A stretch of 64,000 bases of DNA, taken from contig LFCK01000001.1 of assembly GCA_001189095.1 (NCBI GenBank), forward strand, positions 149,251-213,250, in the 5' to 3' direction. A program made the translations under genes and the position numbers. Source of the stretch: Parcubacteria bacterium C7867-001. GTDB lineage: Bacteria; Patescibacteriota; Minisyncoccia; Phycocordibacterales; Phycocordibacteraceae. The notes under the pieces are model-generated. The model ran no database searches. It was not told the DNA's origin and worked only from the letters and a program-made list of their open reading frames with translations. Shown here piece after piece: positions 5,873 to 59,434 of the stretch; position 1 is the first letter of the stretch; each line of letters begins with the position of its first letter.

Positions 5873-6227
5873 GACTCACTCCCTTTATTTGAATCAGGAC
5901 AGTCCCGATTCGCCTGACTTTGACGATAGCACGCATATGTAAATAAAAAAGCCCGAGCAGTGCTCGGGCCGTGGGGAGGGGCGGTGATAGCCGCCCCTCC
6001 TTCGCCGTAGCGATCCTTTATTCACCTGGGATCTAGGCGACGACGTGACCGTCCGATTGTTTGCGCATATGCAACTCCCGTGGCACACGATTGATATCCG
6101 GACCTATTGGGTTTATCTGACCCAGTTCGCGGATTAAGGGAGAATAGCATTCGAATACAGAGCCACAAGGTCACGCCCTGTATAACATTTGCATGCGGCG
6201 CCCTTCATTTTTTGCTACAATTCATGA

Positions 6228-6869
6228 ATGGTCATCACCCATCACGGCGGTCAGTGTTTCAAGGTTACCTTCGGCGACATCACCGTCGTCTTCGACCCCG
6301 TCAGCAAGAGCGGGACGCTCCCCGCGGTACGTTTTGGCGCGGACATCGCGCTCGTTTCGAGGAATCATCCAGACATGAATGGTGTCGAAGAAGTTACCTT
6401 CGGTAACAAGGAACCATTTGCTATTACCGGACCCGGTGAATACGAGTTCGGCGGCGTGACCGTGCAAGGCTTCCTCACCAAAAGCGAATACGGACTTAAG
6501 AAAGGAGAAGCGAACGCAATAAATACCGTCTACGCAGTGAAGCTTGAGAACATGACGCTTGTGCATTTGGGTGCACTCGCCGAGCCGAATCTTTCAGTCG
6601 AGGCGCGCGAAGCAATCGACGACATCGACGTGCTTTTCGTACCGGTCGGTGCCGATGGCGTGCTCGATGCCGCAGCCGCAAGCAAGATAGCGACCACACT
6701 CGAGCCGCACATCATAATCCCGATGCACTGGAGTGGCATGGGCGCCCCTAAATCGCTCGATGCCTTTATAAAGGAGGAGGGCGGCTCTTCAGAAAAGACC
6801 GATAAGCTCACCCTGAAAAAGAAGGATGCAGCAGAGAAGGACGGTGCTATCATAGTCATAACGCCCTAA
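6228..6869 (+). CDS. Metallo-beta-lactamase-fold metal-dependent hydrolase (UPF0173-like)
   Basis: N-terminus MVITHHGGQCFKVTFGDITVVFDP resembles the MKITxxGHxCF family start. 213 aa. Later histidine (PMHW) and aspartate positions typical of the MBL fold. Confidence 0.7.
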   Translation: MVITHHGGQCFKVTFGDITVVFDPVSKSGTLPAVRFGADIALVSRNHPDMNGVEEVTFGNKEPFAITGPGEYEFGGVTVQGFLTKSEYGLKKGEANAINTVYAVKLENMTLVHLGALAEPNLSVEAREAIDDIDVLFVPVGADGVLDAAAASKIATTLEPHIIIPMHWSGMGAPKSLDAFIKEEGGSSEKTDKLTLKKKDAAEKDGAIIVITP

Positions 6870-16466: not shown

Positions 16467-16553
16467 TAGGACCCTCCTGTTGGTTAATTCGTACCTCGGT
16501 TCTCAAGGTACTTCTGGTACTAAATTAAACAGAAATTACGCTAAAGTCAAGTG

Positions 16554-16637
16554 TGCCGAGGGTGGGAATCGAACCCACACGAACTTTCGTTCACGACGGT
16601 TTAAGCGTCGCGTGTCTACCAATTCCACCACCTCGGC
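16554..16637 (-). tRNA. tRNA-Leu (anticodon TAA)
   Basis: Cloverleaf folded by hand. Acceptor gccgagg/cctcggc. Anticodon stem cgacg/cgtcg with loop cttaaac. Long variable arm. T-loop ggttcgattcc. Confidence 0.85.
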
Positions 16638-16784
16638 AATTTCTACAGGGTACTCGGATACCCCTTCCGTATCAAATGCTTTATTGTTAGGATTGCTAAC
16701 ATTGCGCCCATATGGAAATTCCCATATGGCCGCTCGTTCGGCGCAAAAGAATGATACGTAGTATCATTCTTTTGACCTCACTTT

Positions 16785-16857
16785 GCGCCCATAGCTCAGT
16801 TGGTAGAGCAACTGCCTCTTAAGCAGTGGGTCCCAGGTTCGAGCCCTGGTGGGCGCA
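16785..16857 (+). tRNA. tRNA-Lys (anticodon CTT)
   Basis: Acceptor gcgccca/tgggcgc. D-arm gctcagttggtagagc. Anticodon stem actgc/gcagt with loop ctcttaa. T-loop ggttcgagccc. Followed by a long perfect hairpin terminator (16858-16902). Confidence 0.9.
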
Positions 16858-16910
16858 CAAAGACAGAAAAACCTGCCCTGCGGCAGGTTTTTCTGTCTTT
16901 GTGCGAGCCG

Positions 16911-16975
16911 CAGCCATGTTTTGTCAGTAGACAAAACGGCGAGGCGGGATCGCGGAATTTTGCGAGTGTCGACGA
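16911..16975 (+). repeat. Copy A of a ~65-nt conserved non-coding element (gttttgtcagYagacaaaacSgcgaggcgg ... gagtgtcgacgag)
   Basis: Second copy at 61110-61174 with the same two conserved blocks and a variable middle. Both copies sit next to tRNA sequence. Confidence 0.6.
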
Positions 16976-17003
16976 GCAAAAGATCTGTGATCACAAAATC
17001 CAG

Positions 17004-17085
17004 TGCCGAGGAGAGGACTCGAACCTCCATCCCTTGCGGGGCCTGCTCCTAAGGCAGGTGCGTCTACCAATTTCGCCACCTCGGC
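17004..17085 (-). tRNA. tRNA-Leu (anticodon TAG)
   Basis: Acceptor gccgagg/cctcggc. Anticodon stem cctgc/gcagg with loop cttagga. Long variable arm. T-loop ggttcgagtcc. Confidence 0.85.
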
Positions 17086-17092
17086 AATCTTG

Positions 17093-17164
17093 AGGCCCGA
17101 ACGGGAATTGAACCCGTGCATAGCGGGTTTGCAATCCGCCGCGTTACCACTTCGCCATCGGGCC
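17093..17164 (-). tRNA. tRNA-Cys (anticodon GCA)
   Basis: Acceptor ggcccga/tcgggcc. Anticodon loop ttgcaaa. T-loop ggttcaattcc. Confidence 0.8.
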
Positions 17165-24806: not shown

Positions 24807-24835
24807 AAAAACCGCCTTGCGGCGGCTTTGCAGTG

Positions 24836-24906
24836 CGGGCCCACGAGGAATCGAACCTCGGCCGACGGTTTTGGAGACCGACGTTCTACCATTAAACTAT
24901 AGGCCC
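24836..24906 (-). tRNA. tRNA-Trp (anticodon CCA)
   Basis: Acceptor gggccta/tgggccc. Anticodon loop ctccaaa. T-loop ggttcgattcc. Hairpin plus T5 terminator downstream on the minus strand (24808-24832). Confidence 0.85.
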
Positions 24907-29542: not shown

Positions 29543-29543
29543 G

Positions 29544-29624
29544 TGCCGAGGGAGAGACTCGAACTCTCAATCCGTGAGGAAGTGGGTTTTGAATCCACCG
29601 CGTATACCATTCCGCCACCCCGGC
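29544..29624 (-). tRNA. tRNA-Leu (anticodon CAA)
   Basis: Acceptor gccgggg/ctcggc(a). Anticodon loop ttcaaaa with an A-C at the loop-closing pair. Long variable arm. T-loop agttcgagtct. Confidence 0.75.
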
Positions 29625-45057: not shown

Positions 45058-45131
45058 TGGGAGATCGTCTAATGGTAGGACAGCGGCCTTTGAAGCCGTG
45101 AATCTAGGTTCGATCCCTAGTCTCCCAGCCA
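45058..45131 (+). tRNA. tRNA-Gln (anticodon TTG), CCA encoded
   Basis: Acceptor tgggaga/tctccca (U1-A72). Anticodon loop ctttgaa. T-loop ggttcgatccc. Ends ...cagcca. Confidence 0.9.
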
Positions 45132-50030: not shown

Positions 50031-51359
50031 TTATGCGACCGTTATTTTTTTATCTTTCAGAAATAGTTTGGTCTTGAGACATGAGAGCATCTCTCGCTTC
50101 TCGAATATCGTTCCTTCTTTCAGCAGGTACTTTGCGTAGTTCCTGATATCCACGTCTGGTGTTTGAACATCCTTCTTGTGTCCCAGCACACCCACTCTAA
50201 ATTTGTTGAATCGTGCTAGTTCTTGCTCTATCCGCGAGTGCATTCCTAGCTCATCCAGACTCAGTGTGTCCATAAGCTCCACCAGCCCGTCTATAAGTAG
50301 AGTCTCGTTGATATAGGGATTCTGGCATTCATCCCTACCTATCTTGCTACAGAAGTAGTACACATGCCGATTCACCCCTCCATCTTTAAGCTTCTTAAAC
50401 TTCTCGTCAGCAGTAATTCCTGAGGTGCAGTACCCGCATCGAATCAGCTTCGTGAAGGCGAACTCTTTACTCTCGGTTTTCGGTACGTACTTCTGGTCTA
50501 AGGCAACCTGCACCTTGTCGAACAGTTCTTTATCAATGACTGGGCTATGTCGTCCCGTGTACCAGTTACCACTCCCGACAGGGTACTCAAACTCCCCATA
50601 GTAGTACGGGTTCCGTAATATGAGGTAGATGTTTGCGAGCACGAGCGGTTTTCCGCGGTGCGTTTTGAATCCAGTATCCTCGAGCCATCGGTGTAGCTTT
50701 CTTCCGCTCCATTGTTCGTGCGCGACTTTCTCATACATCTGCCGAATCACATGTCCTCGCTTCGGATCTATTCTCGACTGGCATTTCTTATCAACATTCT
50801 TCTCATTCAAATAACCCGTGGGTGCGACTCCTGGTCGAAGTCCCATCTCACACCTCGTGCGAAGTCCACGTTTTACGTTCACCGCCTTGTTGTCATTCTC
50901 GAGCTTTGCCTGACTTCCTAGAATCATCAATAGAAACTTCTCATTCGGATTATTGGTGAATCGCTGTCCGTAGGTGCGTATTTCTACCAACTTCCCCTGA
51001 TCCATCAAATCCACCACCGACCCTAAGTCCCCAGCATTACGCGCCAGACGGTCGGGTGCCCACGTCAGGATGCCGTTGTACTTACCCTCACGAAGCTCGG
51101 CGAGCATTTCGTTGTATATCGGTCTTTGTCCAACCTCCTTAGAGGAGTGCGATTCTCGCTTGGTCTCTATTATGGTCAGTCCATCCCGCTCAGCTAAATT
51201 CAACATCTCCTTAACTTGCGATTCTATTGATAATGCCTGCTTATCCTCGGCTTCCGTCGATTTCCTCGCGTAGAGGCAGTATTTGATGGCTACTGCCTCT
51301 ATAAGAGGGACAGGTCTCGAAACCCCTTGTTTACGCTCACTTATTGCTATTTGTGTCAT
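50031..51359 (-). CDS. Large serine recombinase (resolvase-domain plus recombinase/zinc-ribbon domains)
   Basis: Catalytic AIKYCLYARKSTEAEDKQALSIESQ (Y-A-R-x-S-T serine motif), a later recombinase domain and a Cys cluster (CGYCTS...C). Start placed at MTQIAIS. The ORF track extends to 51518 but would overlap the divergent gene. Confidence 0.8.
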   Translation of the reverse strand: MTQIAISERKQGVSRPVPLIEAVAIKYCLYARKSTEAEDKQALSIESQVKEMLNLAERDGLTIIETKRESHSSKEVGQRPIYNEMLAELREGKYNGILTWAPDRLARNAGDLGSVVDLMDQGKLVEIRTYGQRFTNNPNEKFLLMILGSQAKLENDNKAVNVKRGLRTRCEMGLRPGVAPTGYLNEKNVDKKCQSRIDPKRGHVIRQMYEKVAHEQWSGRKLHRWLEDTGFKTHRGKPLVLANIYLILRNPYYYGEFEYPVGSGNWYTGRHSPVIDKELFDKVQVALDQKYVPKTESKEFAFTKLIRCGYCTSGITADEKFKKLKDGGVNRHVYYFCSKIGRDECQNPYINETLLIDGLVELMDTLSLDELGMHSRIEQELARFNKFRVGVLGHKKDVQTPDVDIRNYAKYLLKEGTIFEKREMLSCLKTKLFLKDKKITVA

Positions 51360-51516
51360 ACAACCACATTGATGACGCCGAACCCCATACGAGTCTAGAG
51401 CGGCTAAGACGCGTTGGAGTTGGCAGAGTCTGCCAGAGATTACTCTTTGTGTAGGCTGTAAATCAGGAGTAAAATGAAGCAAATGAGGCAAGCAAAAGTA
51501 AACGTATTTATTACAC

Positions 51517-52125
51517 ATGCAAGACGATCCATTTCTAGGAACTAAGGACGGGCTTAGTGTCCTAGGTGGAGAAGTATCTAATTTTTACCAATTAGGATTT
51601 GGTCAACTTGATATCAGCGAAGAGGAAATTAGTAAAGCTGGGCGATTGATACATGTTTTGTCGATTATAAAGCTTGAAGGATTACGTCCAGAAAAGTATC
51701 CCGCGAAGGGTGTAACGAATGATCATCACAGGCATTTACAAGGTGCATTATTCGCTTTTGGAACTGAAGGAGTTAATCACGAATGGAGAGAACACTCCGC
51801 ATCATCTATACGAGAAATGATTTCAGGCTTTGCTTCGTCTGAACTGGAATTTAATGAGAACGTAAGTAAGTATGGGACTAATCAGAATACTAATTCAGAT
51901 GAACTTAAAAAGATAGAATCGGCTTGTAAAAAAATAAAGAAGTACTACCAATTTTTTACTGGCGTAACACATCATCAACAGGCAGCCATTACTAATGGAT
52001 TCCGTCAATTAGAAGATTTAAGTGCAGAAAATGAAAGATGCTTGAGCGTCGATAGTTTTAAATTAGTGTTCAAACATTTCTTTATTGATTTGAAGAAAAT
52101 CATTACAGTATTTCCAGACCTATGA
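51517..52125 (+). CDS. Hypothetical protein (202 aa), translationally coupled to the next gene
   Basis: ATGA overlap with the 52122 start. No recognisable motif. AT-rich codon usage typical of the island. Confidence 0.5.
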   Translation: MQDDPFLGTKDGLSVLGGEVSNFYQLGFGQLDISEEEISKAGRLIHVLSIIKLEGLRPEKYPAKGVTNDHHRHLQGALFAFGTEGVNHEWREHSASSIREMISGFASSELEFNENVSKYGTNQNTNSDELKKIESACKKIKKYYQFFTGVTHHQQAAITNGFRQLEDLSAENERCLSVDSFKLVFKHFFIDLKKIITVFPDL

Positions 52126-55064
52126 AACAGCTTCAATTACATCGCAAAATAGATGAGTTTTTGAAAGCAGGAATTGCAACCGCGTCTGTTGATGTTGCGC
52201 AAGGGTTTATTCATGGTAACGAAGACTCAAAGCGGTATTTCTTTGCACAGGCAAATGAGTCTTGGCTAAGATGGTTCTTCGATAATGGTCTCTTTGAGGA
52301 ACTTAAGAAAAAAGCCGAAGATCCGACTAAGTACGGATACCGTCTTTCAGAACTTGAGTATCTAACAAGAATGGCGGATAAAGAGCCTCAGACTGTAGTG
52401 GATATTATTCTTTCCATCTCTATCACCAAGGACACCTTCAATCCTGAGGTAATAGATAGATTTTTCTGGATTACAGGACTACTGCCAATCACTCAAATAA
52501 AACAGATTCTACCAAAGATTCTCTCTGAAAATTGGTTGTTGCTGATGTCACCATTTAGTAAGTCTGGATACGAGTATCAGAAGATGGTCGAGAAGCTAAG
52601 TGAAGCTAAGGATTATGACGCTCTCCTTATTCTCACTCAAATCATTCTCACCGTTCGTGCAAAAGAAGAGTTCGCTGACTCGGAACGCTTTTTCATATCG
52701 GATAAATTGTTCTACCTTGGCGATATCAACGCTACGGGTATATTTGATGTAATCACAAATACTGAGAATCCAAAGAAAGAGGAGTTTTTGAAGGTTACCC
52801 TAGACACCCTCGCGATAGTTGTTGATTTGGGTAAAGAAAGAGAAGAGACTGTCTTTGATAAAACGGAACCGTTTTATTTACTCGATGTCGATATATTTGC
52901 TCTTGAACTTGATACGGGTAAGCGGTCTCATCTAAGAGAAGACATTCAAAATCTTGTTGCAACAGCTAAAGTTCTTGTTCGCTCTACAATCGGCTCTCTC
53001 TGTGAGAACGAGTTAGAAACAAGGCGAATATACGATACATATATTGCGACCCTGCCAGATAGTCTTACTTGCTGGAGATTGAAGCTCTACTCGATTACTC
53101 GTTGCCCCGAGGTCTTTAAAGTTGAAATCAAAGAGGCGTTATTCCGCGCATTCAATGTGGGAGAAAGATATTTTGAAATCGATGGAGGTGCCGAGTACCA
53201 TAGAGGTCTCATTGCTGGTTTTGGTGCACTTGATGATGCGACAAAAAGAGAGTATGTCAGCAAAGTCATTGAATATTACGGCGCTACTTTAGACGATAAG
53301 GATCGAGAGGGGTGGAGAAAGAGAGATGGTCTAGAGATATTAGGCTATATCAAAACTTATCTAACTCCAGAAGAATTCACAATCTCTGAACCAATCTTGG
53401 GAGTTATACCTACGGGTGAGGTTGTTGTACCACATCCGTCAGTCGGAAAAGTCACTAGTGGAATGGTACTCCACAAATCACCGTTTAACCCAGCAGATAT
53501 TACAATCGACGAACTCATTAATCACCTTAAAACTGACTCAACACCGAAAGCACTTAATGAGCAGTACAAGAATGACGATTTCCTCAGCCCGCGCGGAGCT
53601 GAGGGACTTAGTGATGCAATAAAAGAAGATTTTAAAATACGAAGAGTTGAGTATTTGAGCAATCTCAATAAGTTCTTTGACCGTGATGCAATTGACCCCG
53701 TGTATGTTTATGGACTTCTTCGTCAGGTAGAAGACATGCTTCGAGCAAAAGAAGCATTTAGTACTACTGAATATCTTCAGTTAATAAGCTTCTTTACTCT
53801 CATCGAACAATCTGGAACAGAGGTCGAATTTGAGCCAGCAGAGGAAAGACCTTACTGGGCTGACTGGATAACTGTGCACAAATCTATGGCAGATGTGTTA
53901 CTTGAGATTCTTGCACTAATGAAAGATTCCCAGACATTCAAAGATAATAGAGCACAAATATTCTCCTTGGTTAAATATCTTCTTTCCATCAAGAGTAGCC
54001 CTGATGCAGAGGACGATAAACGAGAATCAAATGAGCCAGCTCATGTAGCCATCAATTCCGTGCGTGGCCAGGCGTATAGAGCGTTCGTACAATTCACCTA
54101 TAACGAAGGAAATAAAACATTGTCGGAGGACGTAAAGACTCTCTACGAGCATGTGTTGGCTACTGATAGCTCAAACGCAGTCAGGTTTACGATAGGTCAA
54201 TTTTTGGCATCATTCTATTTCCGCGACATCCCGTTTATTACAAGTCTATTTCCAAAGCTATTCCCGAAAGCAGAAGCCGGTAAAGAAAAGGCTTACTTCG
54301 CGACATGGGAAGGGTATCTCGCGAGCTCGCTATACAAAGAGCTTTTTGAAGCACTTAGGGAATATTACGAATATGCAATAAACATCGATCCAGAGACGTA
54401 CCCTGATCGGAAATACCTCAAAGGATTAGATGAAACTCTTGCTGTCCATATCGCACTTGCGTACGCGCACTTCGATTTCAACATAGGTGATCCTTTGTTT
54501 GATCTATTCTGGAATACTGCTAATGAGACCCGTCATTACGAGTTCGTGTCATTTGTTGGGCGAACTTGTATCACTCGAAGTCAGGCTGGCGATGCTTGGT
54601 TTGCTGAAAATAATGTAAGCAAAGAAAAGCTCATTGAGTTCTGGAATTGGATTATTGCTACAGATATTCCGATTGAATCAAAAGCGTTTTCGGGCTTTGG
54701 GTTCTGGATAAATCCTGACAAGGAAATCATTGATGAGAAGATACTCATCCAAAACCTTTCAACTACTCTTGAAAAATCCGAGGGTGAGGTTGATTGGGAT
54801 TACGGTCTAACCCGTAGAATAAAAGTATTTGCTGAAATTGATCCAGAAAATACGCTCGAAATAATTCGACACTTCTTGTTGCAGGGTAACGAACTGAATT
54901 CGCATAGACGAGCACCTTTATTCAGTATTGATACTGAAATCAAAGAAGCTCTCGAGATTATCTATACGAACGAGCGACTAAAACAGGGTGTCGAAGACCT
55001 CATCAATCTTCTCATTGAAAGGGGTAGTAGTGTCTTCTGGGGGCTCAAAGACATCCTCAAATAG
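52122..55064 (+). CDS. Large hypothetical protein (980 aa, predicted alpha-helical, no recognisable catalytic motif)
   Basis: Single uninterrupted ORF. No Walker, HEPN, PD-(D/E)xK or zinc-finger motifs visible by eye. Weak hairpin (agggc ttcgcaa gccct) after the stop. Confidence 0.6.
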   Translation: MKQLQLHRKIDEFLKAGIATASVDVAQGFIHGNEDSKRYFFAQANESWLRWFFDNGLFEELKKKAEDPTKYGYRLSELEYLTRMADKEPQTVVDIILSISITKDTFNPEVIDRFFWITGLLPITQIKQILPKILSENWLLLMSPFSKSGYEYQKMVEKLSEAKDYDALLILTQIILTVRAKEEFADSERFFISDKLFYLGDINATGIFDVITNTENPKKEEFLKVTLDTLAIVVDLGKEREETVFDKTEPFYLLDVDIFALELDTGKRSHLREDIQNLVATAKVLVRSTIGSLCENELETRRIYDTYIATLPDSLTCWRLKLYSITRCPEVFKVEIKEALFRAFNVGERYFEIDGGAEYHRGLIAGFGALDDATKREYVSKVIEYYGATLDDKDREGWRKRDGLEILGYIKTYLTPEEFTISEPILGVIPTGEVVVPHPSVGKVTSGMVLHKSPFNPADITIDELINHLKTDSTPKALNEQYKNDDFLSPRGAEGLSDAIKEDFKIRRVEYLSNLNKFFDRDAIDPVYVYGLLRQVEDMLRAKEAFSTTEYLQLISFFTLIEQSGTEVEFEPAEERPYWADWITVHKSMADVLLEILALMKDSQTFKDNRAQIFSLVKYLLSIKSSPDAEDDKRESNEPAHVAINSVRGQAYRAFVQFTYNEGNKTLSEDVKTLYEHVLATDSSNAVRFTIGQFLASFYFRDIPFITSLFPKLFPKAEAGKEKAYFATWEGYLASSLYKELFEALREYYEYAINIDPETYPDRKYLKGLDETLAVHIALAYAHFDFNIGDPLFDLFWNTANETRHYEFVSFVGRTCITRSQAGDAWFAENNVSKEKLIEFWNWIIATDIPIESKAFSGFGFWINPDKEIIDEKILIQNLSTTLEKSEGEVDWDYGLTRRIKVFAEIDPENTLEIIRHFLLQGNELNSHRRAPLFSIDTEIKEALEIIYTNERLKQGVEDLINLLIERGSSVFWGLKDILK

Positions 55065-55378
55065 AGCTGTTGGTAAGAGGGCTTCGCAAGGCCCTATATC
55101 TAAGCTAAGGTTCTAAAAGGTAGCGCAATTTGCTATCATAGTCCTTGTACAACAAAGACCTAACCTCTAGAAAACGCTTAGTTTCCTAGAGCATGGTCGG
55201 AATAACAAAACCGCTACAGTATAGAAGGCTCCTCGTCAGAGTCACTGTAGCGGTCGTGTACTCGAAAGGGTATATGGGTTAGGCCGAAAGGTCTGATCGC
55301 AATGGCGGGGAGCCTTCTGTCCCACGACTCTAGGCTCCCTGCTACTTATTAGCAGAAGCTAAAACCGCTACAGTGCAT

Positions 55379-56302
55379 ATGAATAAAAGTATACAAATAG
55401 GCGTATTCGCCTTAGGGATATTTATATTCCAAGCAACCAACGTTCACGCAACTGACTATAACTACCTGCCTCCCGATGTTCTCATCAAACAGCAGGAAGC
55501 GCAGTCAGCTCTTGAGTACCGACTGCAAAAACTAGAAGCATCCGTTTCGAGCGATTCGTCTGCATCTATTGCGAGCCTCAAGTCTCGTATATCCCAACTC
55601 GAATCAGAGCGCACAACGGAGAAAAACTATATCTCAGGAGTGTATGCTCAGAGTGGTATTGCCAATCAGCTCGAAGCTAAGTTAGCTGAGATTGATGCGA
55701 AATACGACTCCCATATAAGTAGCCTGAAGTCACAGTTATCGAAACTCGAGAGTTCAAGTTCAAGCCAGTCAAACAACGAGTCAGAGATCCAGTCCCTAAA
55801 GCTCCAGATTGCCCAGCTCAAGGATAAGATCGCCACTCAAGAACTTCAGGTCAGTGAACAGGCGCTCGAAAAGTATCAAACAAAATACGAGTACTCAGAT
55901 GCAGAAGTGTACGAGGTCTTTACCTATATAGATGCACTTGCTCTCCAAGACTCATCCAAGCTGTTCCAGCGCATCAAAGTCAATAATCCAGAAGTAGCGT
56001 CTCGGGTTGTCGCTTTCTACAACCAGAAGTACCCACACGGGAAGCCGGGCACTGCAATTAACGATGAGTACCTCGCTTCGCTTCCAAAGACAACGGCTCC
56101 CACGCCTACAAAAACTCAGGCTGGAGTAGCACCAACTGTTGTACCGAAAGAGGTAGCAACTACCGCGAAGGATTCTGTCCCAGCAGAATGGCAGATCCCT
56201 CCCACTCCTGAACCAGTCATCACTCCACCAGTAGAACCAAAGCCAACGTTCATTCAGAAAGTAATGAGCTTCTTTAGTCGATGGTTTTTCGGAGGAAAGT
56301 AG
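55379..56302 (+). CDS. Secreted coiled-coil protein with Pro/Thr-rich C-terminal region
   Basis: Signal peptide MNKSIQIGVFALGIFIFQATNVHA. Heptad-like Ser/Leu/Gln repeats. PTPTKTQAGVAPTVVPKE...PPTPEPVITPPVEPKP tail. Confidence 0.6.
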   Translation: MNKSIQIGVFALGIFIFQATNVHATDYNYLPPDVLIKQQEAQSALEYRLQKLEASVSSDSSASIASLKSRISQLESERTTEKNYISGVYAQSGIANQLEAKLAEIDAKYDSHISSLKSQLSKLESSSSSQSNNESEIQSLKLQIAQLKDKIATQELQVSEQALEKYQTKYEYSDAEVYEVFTYIDALALQDSSKLFQRIKVNNPEVASRVVAFYNQKYPHGKPGTAINDEYLASLPKTTAPTPTKTQAGVAPTVVPKEVATTAKDSVPAEWQIPPTPEPVITPPVEPKPTFIQKVMSFFSRWFFGGK

Positions 56303-56642
56303 TAGTTGTCCACAGCCCATCTTGGGACTAGGTTTTAAATTTCCCTTAAAACATAAAGGATTTTTACAAGGGCTTTCTAATGTTCAAAGTTAGAGACCAG
56401 TGTCTGTATCATTTTTGTGATAGCGTTAGCTCTAGAAGCACCAATCACATCAGACCTGATTCTGTGAGCCTAAGCCACTCGCACAATTAAATAAGCCAAT
56501 AAGTAAATCGTGACTTTCTCTACTTGTAGAGAAAGGTATTTCGATTTCTTTGCGGTTCGTCGAAAACCCACCAGAGAGTCGAAGTTAAACTTCGGAAATC
56601 TGGTGGATTTTTGCTTCTAATTACTTAGCTAATTAGAAAGAC

Positions 56643-57971
56643 ATGAACAAGGAAAACTTGAAGATCGAGTACGTAGCCATTGATCAGTTGAATGTGAACA
56701 CGCAGAATCCCCGTAAGTGGAGTGAAGAGCAGAAGAAACAACTCAAGGAGAGTATCAAGCGGTTCGGAAATGTTGATCCGATAATCGTAAATACCCACGA
56801 AGAGCGGAAGAACATTGTCGTAGGAGGACACTTCAGGCTAGAAGCGTGCAAGGAGCTTGGGTACAAGAATATGCCCGTGGTATTCGTGAACCTCACGCCT
56901 AAAAAGGAAGAGGAGCTCAACCTGCGCCTTAACCGCAACCAAGGAGAATTCAATCTTGAGATGCTCGCTAAATTCGACAGCGCAATGCTCCTTGATATCG
57001 GGTTCGACTCGGAAGACATCGATGAGATATTCCCGTCAGTAAAGCACGACCAAGAATTCAATCTTCAGGACGAACTCGACAAGCTCGATATCACGGTCGA
57101 AGCAAAGAAGGGTGAAGTGTATGACCTCGATGGCTCGCGCCTCATGATTGGCGACTCAACCATCGAAGCAGACATGCTGAAACTGATGGGAGATAACCGG
57201 GCGGATATGGTGCTAACAGATCCTCCCTATATCTTGGACTACCTCAAAGGCAAAGGTCGAGGAAAGGATGGTGCAACAGTGGGTTTCGGTTCCAAGAAGA
57301 ATCGTAGGTACCTTGAGACTGATATTCTACCAGACAACTTCAGCGAGTTGTGGATGGCAAATGTCGCCAAGGTCCAGAAGCCTGACTTCTCAATTATCAT
57401 CTTCGAGAACCCAAAGAACCTGCGAACTATTTGGAACGCACTTGAAGCGCACTGGAAGTACCGTAATACGATAACGTGGCATGTGCCCAATCGTATGCAA
57501 GGATTCTCAGCCGCGAATAAGTTCTTCAATAAGACGGACATTGCGCTCGTAGGAGCGAAAGGTGATGTTGCGCTCAACCTAGAACCAGAAGAAGAGCCGT
57601 TCCAGAACGAGTATGAGAACGCGATCTTCGCCACTTCAGGAAAGGCGCACTTCGAGCCGTATGAGAAAGGAAAGAAGATATGCCCGACTGACTTCATCTC
57701 GCACCCAGCGGCAGATAAGAAGTCGTCAGGTCAGGAGATTATCTTCGGCACTAAGCCCATTGAACTCCTCGTTCCGTATCTCAAGGTACTCACCAAGCGA
57801 AATGACCTCATCCTTGAACCGTTCGGTGGAAGCGGGAGCACCCTCATCGCCGCAGTGAAGATGGGTCGCCGGTGCTTCGTCATGGAGAAATCCCACGTCT
57901 ATGCGGAAGTGATTATGAACCGCTGGGAAAAAGAGACAGGCAAGAAGCGTAAGAAAGTCGTAACAGTATGA
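56643..57971 (+). CDS. ParB-like nuclease domain fused to a DNA methyltransferase (N6-adenine / N4-cytosine type)
   Basis: N-terminal ParB-N-like region (YVAIDQLNVNTQNPRKWSEEQ...VGGHFRLEA). Catalytic DPPY motif (VLTDPPYILDY). C-terminal SAM-binding FGGSGST. Confidence 0.8.
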   Translation: MNKENLKIEYVAIDQLNVNTQNPRKWSEEQKKQLKESIKRFGNVDPIIVNTHEERKNIVVGGHFRLEACKELGYKNMPVVFVNLTPKKEEELNLRLNRNQGEFNLEMLAKFDSAMLLDIGFDSEDIDEIFPSVKHDQEFNLQDELDKLDITVEAKKGEVYDLDGSRLMIGDSTIEADMLKLMGDNRADMVLTDPPYILDYLKGKGRGKDGATVGFGSKKNRRYLETDILPDNFSELWMANVAKVQKPDFSIIIFENPKNLRTIWNALEAHWKYRNTITWHVPNRMQGFSAANKFFNKTDIALVGAKGDVALNLEPEEEPFQNEYENAIFATSGKAHFEPYEKGKKICPTDFISHPAADKKSSGQEIIFGTKPIELLVPYLKVLTKRNDLILEPFGGSGSTLIAAVKMGRRCFVMEKSHVYAEVIMNRWEKETGKKRKKVVTV

Positions 57972-58354
57972 CGATAAAGGAACGAACGAAGAAGGATAAA
58001 GCACGCGTACTGGAACACTTGAAAGCGATACCGATTATAGAGGTAGCGTGCAAGAAGGCGAACATTGCTCGCGCCACCTACTACCGCTGGCGTACTGAAG
58101 ACCCTGACTTCCTTAGGGACTCAGAAGACGCACTCGAAGAAGGTATCGCGCTCATTAATGATATGACCGAATCCCAGCTCATCGGTCTCATTAAGGAGAA
58201 GAAGTTCCAAGCGGTGCAATTCTGGCTTCGGCATAACCACCAGCGGTTCCTGCTCAAGGAGAAGGAACACTCGCTGTTGAAGCCCCGAAAGGATGTTGCA
58301 CTCTCACGAGACCAAGAGAAGTCACTCAAGAAAGCATTGGCTATGTACGCATAG
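57968..58354 (+). CDS. HTH protein, terminase-small-subunit-like
   Basis: ATGA overlap with the methyltransferase gene. ACKKANIARATYYRWR helix-turn-helix typical of phage terminase small subunits or transposase HTH domains. Confidence 0.5.
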   Translation: MTIKERTKKDKARVLEHLKAIPIIEVACKKANIARATYYRWRTEDPDFLRDSEDALEEGIALINDMTESQLIGLIKEKKFQAVQFWLRHNHQRFLLKEKEHSLLKPRKDVALSRDQEKSLKKALAMYA

Positions 58355-58375
58355 CTCTCTTTCAGAAGAACGCAT

Positions 58376-59434
58376 ATGAAAAAAGAAACCATACTCCAAA
58401 CCATCATCACTGACAGTGCCGTCAGACGAAGACTCGTGAAAGAATCACACGAGGCGTTTTGTAGTATCTATCTTTCGCACCACATCATGCACCCGTATGC
58501 GTTCTTCCATAAAGAGATGTTCCGCATGACTGAACGAGAAGACGAAAAGCTCTCTGTCGTTATGGCATTCCGTGGCTCAGGCAAATCAACGATTCTGAAC
58601 CTCTCCAATACCATCTGGTCTATCCTCGGTAAGCACCAGAAGAAGTTTGTGCTTATCGTGAGTAAATCAAAGCTTCAGTCTCAGGCGCACTTCCTCAACA
58701 TTAAGTCAGAGCTTGAAGACAACGAGCTACTCAAGCAAGACCTTGGTCCATTTCGGGCGAGTACCACGGAGTGGGGCGCATTCTCTATCGAGCTTCCACT
58801 CTATGGCGCGAAGATAATGTGTATCGGCTCGCTTCAGAATATCCGTGGACTGAAATACAAAAGCCAGCGCCCAGACCTAATCATCTGTGACGATATGGAA
58901 GATACACTCTCCGTGCAGGATGGTGAGACCAGATGGAATCTGTATGAATGGTTCTTGAATGAAGTGATGCCCATCGGAGACGAGAAGACACGAATCCTTG
59001 TGCTGGGAAATCTCGTTGGTAGAGTGTCCCTTATGATCCGACTCAAGAAGCTGATGATGCACGATAAATTGCAAGGCACGTACTACGCGTATCCGCTTCT
59101 TGATAACCACAACCGCATACTCTGGCCTCAACGGTATTCGATAGCCGAAGTGGAGAAACTACGTGATGCGCTCACTGATAAGGACGCACACAGAATGTAC
59201 CGACTCTTTGACCGAGACTATAAACTCAACATGTCCTGCGTACGAGATCCGCTTACCCCTATTCCATACGTATCTCATCCCGTCACCAATACCTCCACCA
59301 AGAAAGAAGACTTCCGCATAACCGCACCGCTCTGGGCGGTGGGCAATCGTGTCTTTGAGGACATGGAAAACATTGATGACCTCGACGGTTGGGACGAGGA
59401 GACGGTAGTGCCGAATGTGGGGCAGGAGTACTAA
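58376..59434 (+). CDS. P-loop ATPase, phage terminase large-subunit-like (apparently short or truncated)
   Basis: Walker A AFRGSGKST and Walker B-like DLIICDD about 100 aa later. 352 aa. No obvious nuclease domain. Confidence 0.5.
   Translation: MKKETILQTIITDSAVRRRLVKESHEAFCSIYLSHHIMHPYAFFHKEMFRMTEREDEKLSVVMAFRGSGKSTILNLSNTIWSILGKHQKKFVLIVSKSKLQSQAHFLNIKSELEDNELLKQDLGPFRASTTEWGAFSIELPLYGAKIMCIGSLQNIRGLKYKSQRPDLIICDDMEDTLSVQDGETRWNLYEWFLNEVMPIGDEKTRILVLGNLVGRVSLMIRLKKLMMHDKLQGTYYAYPLLDNHNRILWPQRYSIAEVEKLRDALTDKDAHRMYRLFDRDYKLNMSCVRDPLTPIPYVSHPVTNTSTKKEDFRITAPLWAVGNRVFEDMENIDDLDGWDEETVVPNVGQEY

Follow-up and report, generated by a model that had tools for sequence, protein, structure and literature searches.

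The 64,000-nucleotide (nt) stretch of the Parcubacteria bacterium C7867-001 genome analysed here (contig LFCK01000001.1, positions 149,251 to 213,250 of the forward strand; hereafter the window, numbered from its first letter) carries, ahead of a gene for a 307-residue protein in a prophage remnant, a structured element that is a LOOT RNA (Rfam RF03000) with a 3' extension beyond the Rfam model. Judging from the sequence and from its relatives, the leader formed in this way probably works as a cis-acting translational RNA switch built on the LOOT core and set in an accessory slot of the prophage remnant. All three copies of a short repeat would lie in a single RNA, the approximately 235-nt 5' leader of the 307-residue gene, with which the leader would be co-transcribed. 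In the LOOT fold, the first copy (X1) would pair with the inverted copy (X'), leaving the third copy (X2) and the AUG single-stranded and translation on; this fold is probably locked by a pseudoknot and by the GAAA loop of hairpin P4 docked in a CCUAA/(U/C)AUGG receptor-like loop. In the tail fold, X2 would displace X1 from X', and the resulting 12-bp helix would cover positions -15 to -4, reach into the start codon and close a junction of hairpins P4, P5, P6 and P7, burying the start region and turning translation off. A second trio of strands would behave alike, Y' pairing with Y1 (the pseudoknot) or with Y2 (P6). Candidate triggers are a ligand, a protein, Mg2+ or folding kinetics. The features of the leader and its gene are as follows.

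55131-55139, + strand: promoter-like extended -10 box TGCTATCAT (hexamer TATCAT at 55134-55139), inferred
55149-55158, + strand: ACAACAAAGA, a variant of ACAAYTKAATA at the predicted 5' end of the LOOT transcript
55157-55298, + strand: LOOT core with P1, receptor-like internal loop, P2, P3, P4 and P5 (Rfam RF03000)
55159-55196, + strand: P2 hairpin and internal loop CCUAAC (55159-55164) / CAUGG (55192-55196), from the alignment
55210-55220, + strand: X1, first direct copy and 5' arm of P3 (exact search, Rfam alignment, covariation)
55223-55238, + strand: Y1, 5' strand of the pseudoknot, AGAAGGCTCCTCGTCA, within the P3 loop (inverted repeat, covariation)
55244-55254, + strand: X', inverted copy and 3' arm of P3, the strand common to both alternative helices
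55255-55276, + strand: P4 hairpin with an invariant GAAA tetraloop (55264-55267), 98.5% paired
55277-55298, + strand: P5 hairpin with a GAAA loop (Rfam alignment, folds)
55303-55318, + strand: Y' (TGGCGGGGAGCCTTCT), 3' strand of the pseudoknot and 5' strand of P6
55332-55342, + strand: Y2 (AGGCTCCCTGC), alternative partner of Y' that pairs with 55305-55315 to give hairpin P6 (duplex -26.1 kcal/mol)
55340-55354, + strand: P7, small hairpin TGCTA-CTTAT-TAGCA between Y2 and X2, predicted in folds of the window only
55361-55374, + strand: X2, third copy (14-mer AAAACCGCTACAGT), rival of X1 for X'
55379-56302, + strand: gene after the leader, 307 aa, with a signal-like hydrophobic N-terminus and a coiled-coil-like repetitive middle

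An exact search of the 64-kb window placed ACCGCTACAGT on the + strand at 55210-55220 and again at 55364-55374, with the reverse complement in between at 55244-55254, which bears out the two direct copies and one inverted copy described in the initial annotation. The positions given there for the inverted and third copies were right and the first copy was 1 nt off; the third copy does end 4 nt (GCAT) ahead of the ATG at 55379-55381. The true direct repeat is longer, being the 14-mer AAAACCGCTACAGT at 55207-55220 and 55361-55374. Chance would give 0.7 matches to the 11-mer with at most one mismatch on both strands of the whole window, and three exact copies inside 165 nt are far above that expectation. 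The second stem reported alongside the repeats is also real (GAAGGCTCC at 55224-55232 with its complement at 55309-55317, 1-2 nt from the earlier coordinates) and extends to 16 nt, pairing 55223-55238 with 55303-55318. It is not nested, as had been stated, but forms a pseudoknot, because its 5' strand lies inside the loop of the hairpin made by the first and inverted copies and its 3' strand lies outside. An additional partner had been missed: AGGCTCCCTGC at 55332-55342 pairs with 55305-55315. In the folding check proposed for the repeat region, the leader region folds to -98.4 kcal/mol, far better than its shuffled versions (z = -7.5; 0 of 200 as good).

An Rfam scan of the whole window identified LOOT at 55157-55298 on the + strand at 50.4 bits, where the gathering threshold is 46.4 (E = 1.6e-06); the match covers the full model (1-121), and two relatives of the locus, L003 (47.4) and L032 (51.8), also exceed the threshold. 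The element shares with the Rfam family P1, the internal loop, P2, an A-rich joiner, a long P3, a GAAA-capped P4 and P5. P3 in the window consists of 11 bp (55210-55220 with 55244-55254), that is, of the first copy and the inverted copy, whereas the third copy lies outside the model. The inner P3 hairpin of the model fits the window poorly, with non-canonical marks, and those nucleotides form the pseudoknot instead. The CCTAA and ATGG columns are invariant in 65 aligned LOOTs, and the loop CCUAAC/CAUGG resembles the CCUAAG/UAUGG 11-nt receptor of GAAA tetraloops. With that receptor, known from the Tetrahymena P4-P6 domain and the type-1 c-di-GMP-I riboswitches, the likeness lies in the CCUAA...(U/C)AUGG loop together with the invariant GAAA of P4, and the difference in the sixth position, which is C or A in LOOT and not G. 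The P4 GAAA loop probably docks into this receptor-like loop.

The LOOT motif was discovered by Weinberg et al. (2017; PMC5737381) and is pictured as a "metagenomic-based RNA" in the Rfam 14 paper (PMC7779021). Rfam files it as a small RNA (sRNA), with a model that ends at P5 and contains neither the 13-16-bp pseudoknot nor P6 nor the start-proximal copy of a P3 arm. In the searchable literature, LOOT is given no function, host or gene context; it is mentioned as a metagenome motif, as an example of "cross-covariation" and as a family with a refined structure. Newly described here for LOOT are its pseudoknot, its position in a leader, a strand-swap expression platform and its setting in prophages of the Candidate Phyla Radiation (CPR).

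For the comparisons, 68 genome loci with relatives of the 980-residue protein encoded upstream of the leader were fetched and 56 of them were scanned with Rfam; LOOT was present in 11 of the 56, all Patescibacteria-type assemblies. A DNA pattern of conserved LOOT positions then matched 5 stretches in viral contigs and at least 120 in metagenome contigs. A simple CCTAA...GCATGG regular expression missed most LOOTs, and the Rfam scans and the longer pattern were used instead. The family counts rest on 129 distinct matches among those listed, a few of which are false (e.g., L071), and 117 LOOTs were retained whose P3 stem has 7 bp or more and whose downstream sequence is long enough. A blastn search of 55100-55400 against 50,697 phage records gave no match.

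The start-proximal copy recurs across this family. An exact copy of at least 8 nt of a LOOT's own P3 5' arm occurs within 200 nt downstream in 39 of the 117 LOOTs (33%), compared with 6 of 2340 (0.26%) when P3 arms were set against the downstream regions of unrelated LOOTs, and this pair of figures is the unbiased measure of X2 conservation. The copies comprise at least 13 different arm sequences, among them CCCGCTAGAG, CCTATCAAGC, CCGTCCAAAG and CCAGTCAGA. Where the start was correctly called (a few rows of the table had mis-called starts), X2 ends 0-12 nt, usually 2-5 nt, before the ATG of an open reading frame (ORF) on the same strand. The predicted X':X2 duplex reaches -10 kcal/mol or lower in 36 of the 38 RNAs of the X2 class against 4 of 74 others, and L103, L119 and L144 add further LOOTs in which the P3 arm is copied with one mismatch. 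An alignment of 31 distinct X1/X'/X2 triples shows pairing of 94% or more in either helix, a value that is partly built in since the subset was selected for having X2, and compensatory changes at all 10 pairs of each helix. In L083, L103 and L144, positions that are G-U in P3 are Watson-Crick in the helix with X2, and in L073, L079, L164 and L168 X2 lengthens the helix past the end of P3. The departures of X2 from X1 keep or improve its pairing with X', as one would expect if selection acts on RNA pairing and not on a DNA repeat. X2 is present in all three pseudoknot subtypes and is commonest in that of the window (19 of 29). Between the window, L003 and L032, the 14-mer is identical amid an otherwise diverged spacer; the triple repeat that was to be sought ahead of homologues is found there, and its geometry recurs in about a third of the LOOTs compared.

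The pseudoknot is common to LOOTs, joining the P3 loop to the sequence after P5 through 13-16 bp. In the alignment of 65 LOOTs, it comprises 12 pairs, 11 of them with changes on both sides, and 96.9% of the cells are paired; the aligned structure as a whole beats 500 of 500 shuffles and every slid register, and the frequency of U-G pairs assigns the RNA to the + strand. For Y' the second option is hairpin P6 (55305-55315 with 55332-55342), at -26.1 kcal/mol compared with -32.2 kcal/mol for the pseudoknot duplex. RNAalifold applied to the window, L003 and L032 predicts a common fold in which P4, P5 and a 14-bp P6 meet at a junction closed by the 12-bp X':X2 helix. One compensatory and several one-sided changes in P6 distinguish these three sequences, and the support for P6 comes from this comparison together with individual strong cases. 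P7 does not appear in the consensus fold of the three sequences; by eye, a similar hairpin of different sequence seems possible at the same place in L003 and L032.

LOOTs appear to carry more than one kind of expression platform. Seven LOOTs of the ACUGAAC subtype (L075, L098, L112, L162, L169, L178 and L184) have ordinary hairpin-plus-U terminators, the 5' half of which overlaps the 3' strand of P6, and these are a second, transcriptional type of platform; with more than one platform kind, the family behaves like a cis-regulator. Several LOOTs have their ATG only 0-15 nt past the 3' strand of the pseudoknot. As a rule, CUUUUUGU comes after this 3' strand and an A run stands ahead of the 5' strand (e.g., L087, L100 and L121), an arrangement that is weak in the window (55310-55322). 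The U run and the A run resemble an intrinsic terminator with a very large structured "loop", which may explain the filing of LOOT as an sRNA.

The two folds of the leader are close in computed energy. For 55146-55400, the best fold has -101.5 kcal/mol with X1:X' forced and -99.7 kcal/mol with X':X2 forced, and the isolated helices have -19.7 and -24.3 kcal/mol, respectively, the X':X2 helix comprising 12 bp (55243-55254 with 55364-55375). Over the 38 X2-class leaders, the median difference between the folds is 2 kcal/mol; 18 leaders lie within 3 kcal/mol, 16 favour the X2 fold, and one outlier is a register error. Computed folds of shortened transcripts adopt the LOOT structure ahead of the synthesis of X2. 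By nearest-neighbour energies, all four combinations of the X and Y pairings lie within a few kcal/mol of each other, and the linkers between P3 and the pseudoknot are only 2 and about 5 nt long. An RNA thermometer was considered and rejected: X':X2 is a perfect 12-bp helix of -24.3 kcal/mol whose strand has a competing partner at -19.7 kcal/mol, which argues for strand exchange and not for melting.

Transcription of the leader is predicted to start near 55146. The ACAAYTKAATA motif, which falls outside the Rfam model, is found in 105 of 126 LOOT loci, where it begins 15-24 nt 5' of CCTAA, and 76 of these 105 have a -10-like hexamer whose end is 6-8 nt ahead of the motif; from this spacing, the transcription start was placed at the motif. 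A strict sigma-70 scan of the window found no two-hexamer promoter upstream of the LOOT core, and on the + strand nothing terminator-like separates the core from the ATG. Pairing of the 5'-terminal motif with the start region, in the manner of a hok-like fold-back, showed no signal (mean z = 0.3; 1 of 90 below -2). The 307-residue ORF is called as a gene in public assemblies, its product belongs to no Pfam family, and the ATG at 55379 is its likely start, not the GTG at 55373, because the L003 homologue begins with the same MNK. A Shine-Dalgarno motif precedes 2 of 33 genes in the window and 0 of 38 X2-class genes; ribosomes would therefore probably need an open, unstructured AUG region. TATAAT-like boxes stand 6-9 nt before several ATGs of the window (gene starts 20243, 43109, 45886 and others), and the sequence suggests that leaderless mRNAs may be widespread in this genome. 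The idea that X2 itself serves as the -10 box of a leaderless mRNA was discarded: TACAGT in the window is -10-like, but the other X2s are not, and a -10-like hexamer directly precedes the ATG in 1 of 38 X2-class loci. A leader-peptide attenuator was rejected as well, as the sole conserved AUG of the leader lies in the receptor loop and the ORFs beginning there run from 2 to 127 codons with no conserved end.

Taken together, the covariation of P3, the recurrence of X2 and the near-isoenergetic folds support the proposal, made in the initial annotation, of mutually exclusive hairpins acting as an RNA switch at the start codon. Two properties expected of riboswitches are seen. One is a conserved structured domain ahead of the controlled gene: of 109 LOOTs, 97 have a complete ORF of at least 60 aa that begins on their own strand within 160 nt, compared with 26 of 105 in the divergent control direction, leader status being read from sequence. 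The other is a platform that excludes a helix of the sensor (X':X2 against X1:X', with terminator platforms elsewhere). A third, a pathway shared by the controlled genes, is not seen among the 114 proteins encoded after LOOTs, which fall into 71 clusters.

Several points weigh against the switch as drawn. X2 occurs in only about a third of the sampled LOOTs, and the switch is therefore an add-on and not the core function of LOOT. The pseudoknotted fold seems to be the off state in LOOTs with terminators (e.g., L075, L178 and L184) or with short spacers, which makes the sign of the switch and the coupling of the X and Y pairings tentative. P6 is common family-wide, but it is weakly significant against shuffles (z < -2 in 25 of 109), because the G-rich Y' pairs with many sequences. 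The near-equality of the folds is approximate, since the energy model ignores pseudoknots and tertiary contacts, and the transcription start of the leader is a predicted one. The search pattern requires the common P4 consensus, so that the P4 variant of the window is represented by L003 and L032 only. Finally, the highly heterogeneous genes after LOOTs are unusual for a metabolite riboswitch.

This heterogeneity would better suit a generic expression cassette than a metabolite sensor, and it is one reason to consider that the leader follows a fixed folding or processing pathway, in which P3 forms first and X':X2 then serves as a stability element or a processing site; in one version, an RNase III-type cut just before the AUG would leave the mRNA almost leaderless, a form that this organism would translate well, and X':X2 would be the productive state. 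The greater strength of isolated X':X2 (-24.3 against -19.7 kcal/mol), which in other LOOTs is often 1-2 bp longer, agrees with such a pathway, as do the end of X2 just 0-12 nt from the ATG, the -10 boxes directly before many ATGs and the near absence of Shine-Dalgarno motifs in the genome. Yet a helix of 10-13 bp is short for RNase III, and the distance between X2 and the ATG varies over those 0-12 nt, unlike a precise leaderless cut. The class-wide energy balance is expected of a switch and needless for a one-way pathway, and two thirds of LOOTs have no X2. We therefore regard a fixed pathway as unlikely. Less likely still is a free-standing LOOT sRNA that ends near the U-rich stretch and whose X' pairs in trans with an X2 target. 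Its appeal comes from the sRNA type in Rfam, from the promoter-like signals that LOOT has of its own and from the terminator-like A run and U run around the pseudoknot strands of most LOOTs. In the window, however, the U run is degenerate (CCUUCUGUCC) and no terminator-like site precedes the ATG on the + strand, which makes a separate sRNA less likely there. Furthermore, X' lies within P3 of the same molecule, which would favour pairing in cis kinetically; in several LOOTs the ATG, 0-15 nt past the pseudoknot, leaves no space for a separate promoter; and, as noted above, a -10-like box immediately ahead of the ATG occurs at just 1 of the 38 X2-class loci. We consider this reading improbable.

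The repeats could also act at the level of DNA, as half-sites of a repressor operator (a possibility raised in the initial annotation), as recombination sites of the serine integrase or as the duplicated target site of an insertion. An 11-mer present near a start codon in two direct copies and one inverted copy would fit such a role; a serine integrase gene lies nearby, and LOOT loci often adjoin one. Nevertheless, the repeats come in at least 13 versions between loci with a geometry fixed in the RNA fold, X2 tracks complementarity to X' and not identity to X1, and the G-U pairs tolerated on the one strand would be mismatches on the other; these features speak directly against operator sites. 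The attachment sites of serine integrases are about 40-50 bp long and conserved for a given enzyme, unlike these repeats, and the direct repeats enclose a segment that begins midway through a conserved RNA hairpin and is therefore not self-contained. Little credence can be given to a DNA-level role, and the RNA switch remains the preferred reading.

The proposed switch has partial counterparts among known systems. In the add adenine riboswitch of Vibrio vulnificus, as in the LOOT leader, a strand of a sensor helix can pair with the initiation region, and the folded sensor frees the start; unlike add, the LOOT leader has no Shine-Dalgarno sequence to hide, no coherent downstream genes and no known ligand, and its competitor is a literal copy of the arm of the sensor's own helix. 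The hok mRNA of the hok/sok system of plasmid R1 shares long-range exclusive pairings, metastable co-transcriptional folds and a mobile-element gene, whereas no antisense RNA, 3' processing or toxin is evident at the LOOT locus, and the two have no sequence or structural relationship. Short-spacer LOOTs resemble the cobalamin, SAM-II and preQ1-II riboswitches, whose pseudoknot or kissing loop engages the ribosome-binding region, in that the pseudoknot strand abuts the ATG and could mask initiation; in the window, about 60 nt separate the 3' strand of the pseudoknot from the ATG, and masking would fall to the X':X2 helix.

With these results, LOOT, an orphan in Rfam since 2017-2020, gains a host (Parcubacteria and other Patescibacteria), a setting (beside a prophage-like serine integrase, ahead of variable secreted or membrane proteins) and a testable mechanism, in which two identical arms would exchange for one partner and one outcome would bury a start that lacks a Shine-Dalgarno sequence. 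If the mechanism is right, the leader would be among the few regulatory RNAs reported from CPR bacteria or from their phages, a clean natural case of a balanced two-state leader and a guide to re-annotating "sRNA" motifs whose expression platforms lie outside their models. It is possible, though on the whole we doubt it, that LOOT is an unrecognised class of signal-sensing cis-regulatory RNAs of the temperate phages of Patescibacteria/CPR. In that case, LOOT would be a riboswitch or a leader that responds to a protein; its core, pseudoknotted and braced by the tetraloop-receptor contact, would sense a host or phage cue, for example a second messenger, Mg2+ or a phage protein, and interchangeable platforms (the P3-arm copy, terminators and the AUG-adjacent pseudoknot) would switch integrase-adjacent accessory genes such as those for surface proteins, nucleases and Ltp-like exclusion lipoproteins.

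The region of the window from 50031 to 59434 is a prophage remnant, and a chromosomal TauE exporter gene follows directly after the fragment of the large terminase. Besides the leader and its gene, it contains:

50031-51518, - strand: large serine integrase, phrog_95
51517-52125: gene for a 202-aa protein, upstream of the 980-aa gene
52122-55064: gene for the 980-aa protein
56643-57971: ParB-like DNA methyltransferase
57968-58354: small terminase subunit
58376-59434: 352-aa protein, the ATPase part only of a large terminase

A relative of the integrase is found in 50 of 125 LOOT loci, 39 of them upstream and divergent, 15 of which stand 100-215 nt away. The methyltransferase has a relative in 26 of the same 125 loci, the small terminase in 28 and the large terminase in 19, and this co-occurrence indicates that LOOT and its gene fill an integrase-adjacent accessory slot of prophage-like elements. 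In temperate phages, such a slot holds exclusion genes expressed in lysogeny, for example ltp. Of the 114 proteins encoded after LOOTs, 61 have an N-terminal hydrophobic segment, and the scattered Pfam matches are to SNase (7), tRNA_anti-like (5), zinc ribbons, bPH_2, DUF4352 and two Ltp-type lipoproteins. The sole theme that these genes share is that they encode secreted or membrane-anchored accessory proteins.

Full-length relatives of the 980-residue protein number more than 140 in Patescibacteria (44-82% identity), some of them fused to a counterpart of the 202-residue protein into chains of about 1150-1185 aa. The protein itself matched no Pfam or PHROG family, and no relative was found in a search of IMG/VR viral contigs. 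Its relatives occur in only 1 of 125 LOOT loci. A link between LOOT and the 980-residue gene was rejected, the two being neighbours in this clade only (11 of 56 and 1 of 125 loci).

Some further observations concern the surroundings of the leader. A hairpin, GGGCTTCGCAAGGCCC, lies at 55078-55096, directly after the stop codon of the 980-residue gene; it has no U run and may mark the end of the upstream transcript. A TAAGCTAAGCT-like motif is placed about 25-45 nt upstream of the promoter-like box, at 55103-55112 in the window and likewise upstream of the LOOTs in L005, L026, L070, L086, L088, L090 and L102, and it may be a protein-binding site in the intergenic region between integrase and LOOT. 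In L010, a Candidatus Uhrbacteria assembly, a SAM riboswitch (RF00162, 48.3 bits) is located at 6164-6311, downstream of the homologue of the 980-residue gene. Elsewhere, the window contains seven tRNA genes, four of them clustered at 16553-17164 and the others at 24835-24906, 29543-29624 and 45058-45131.

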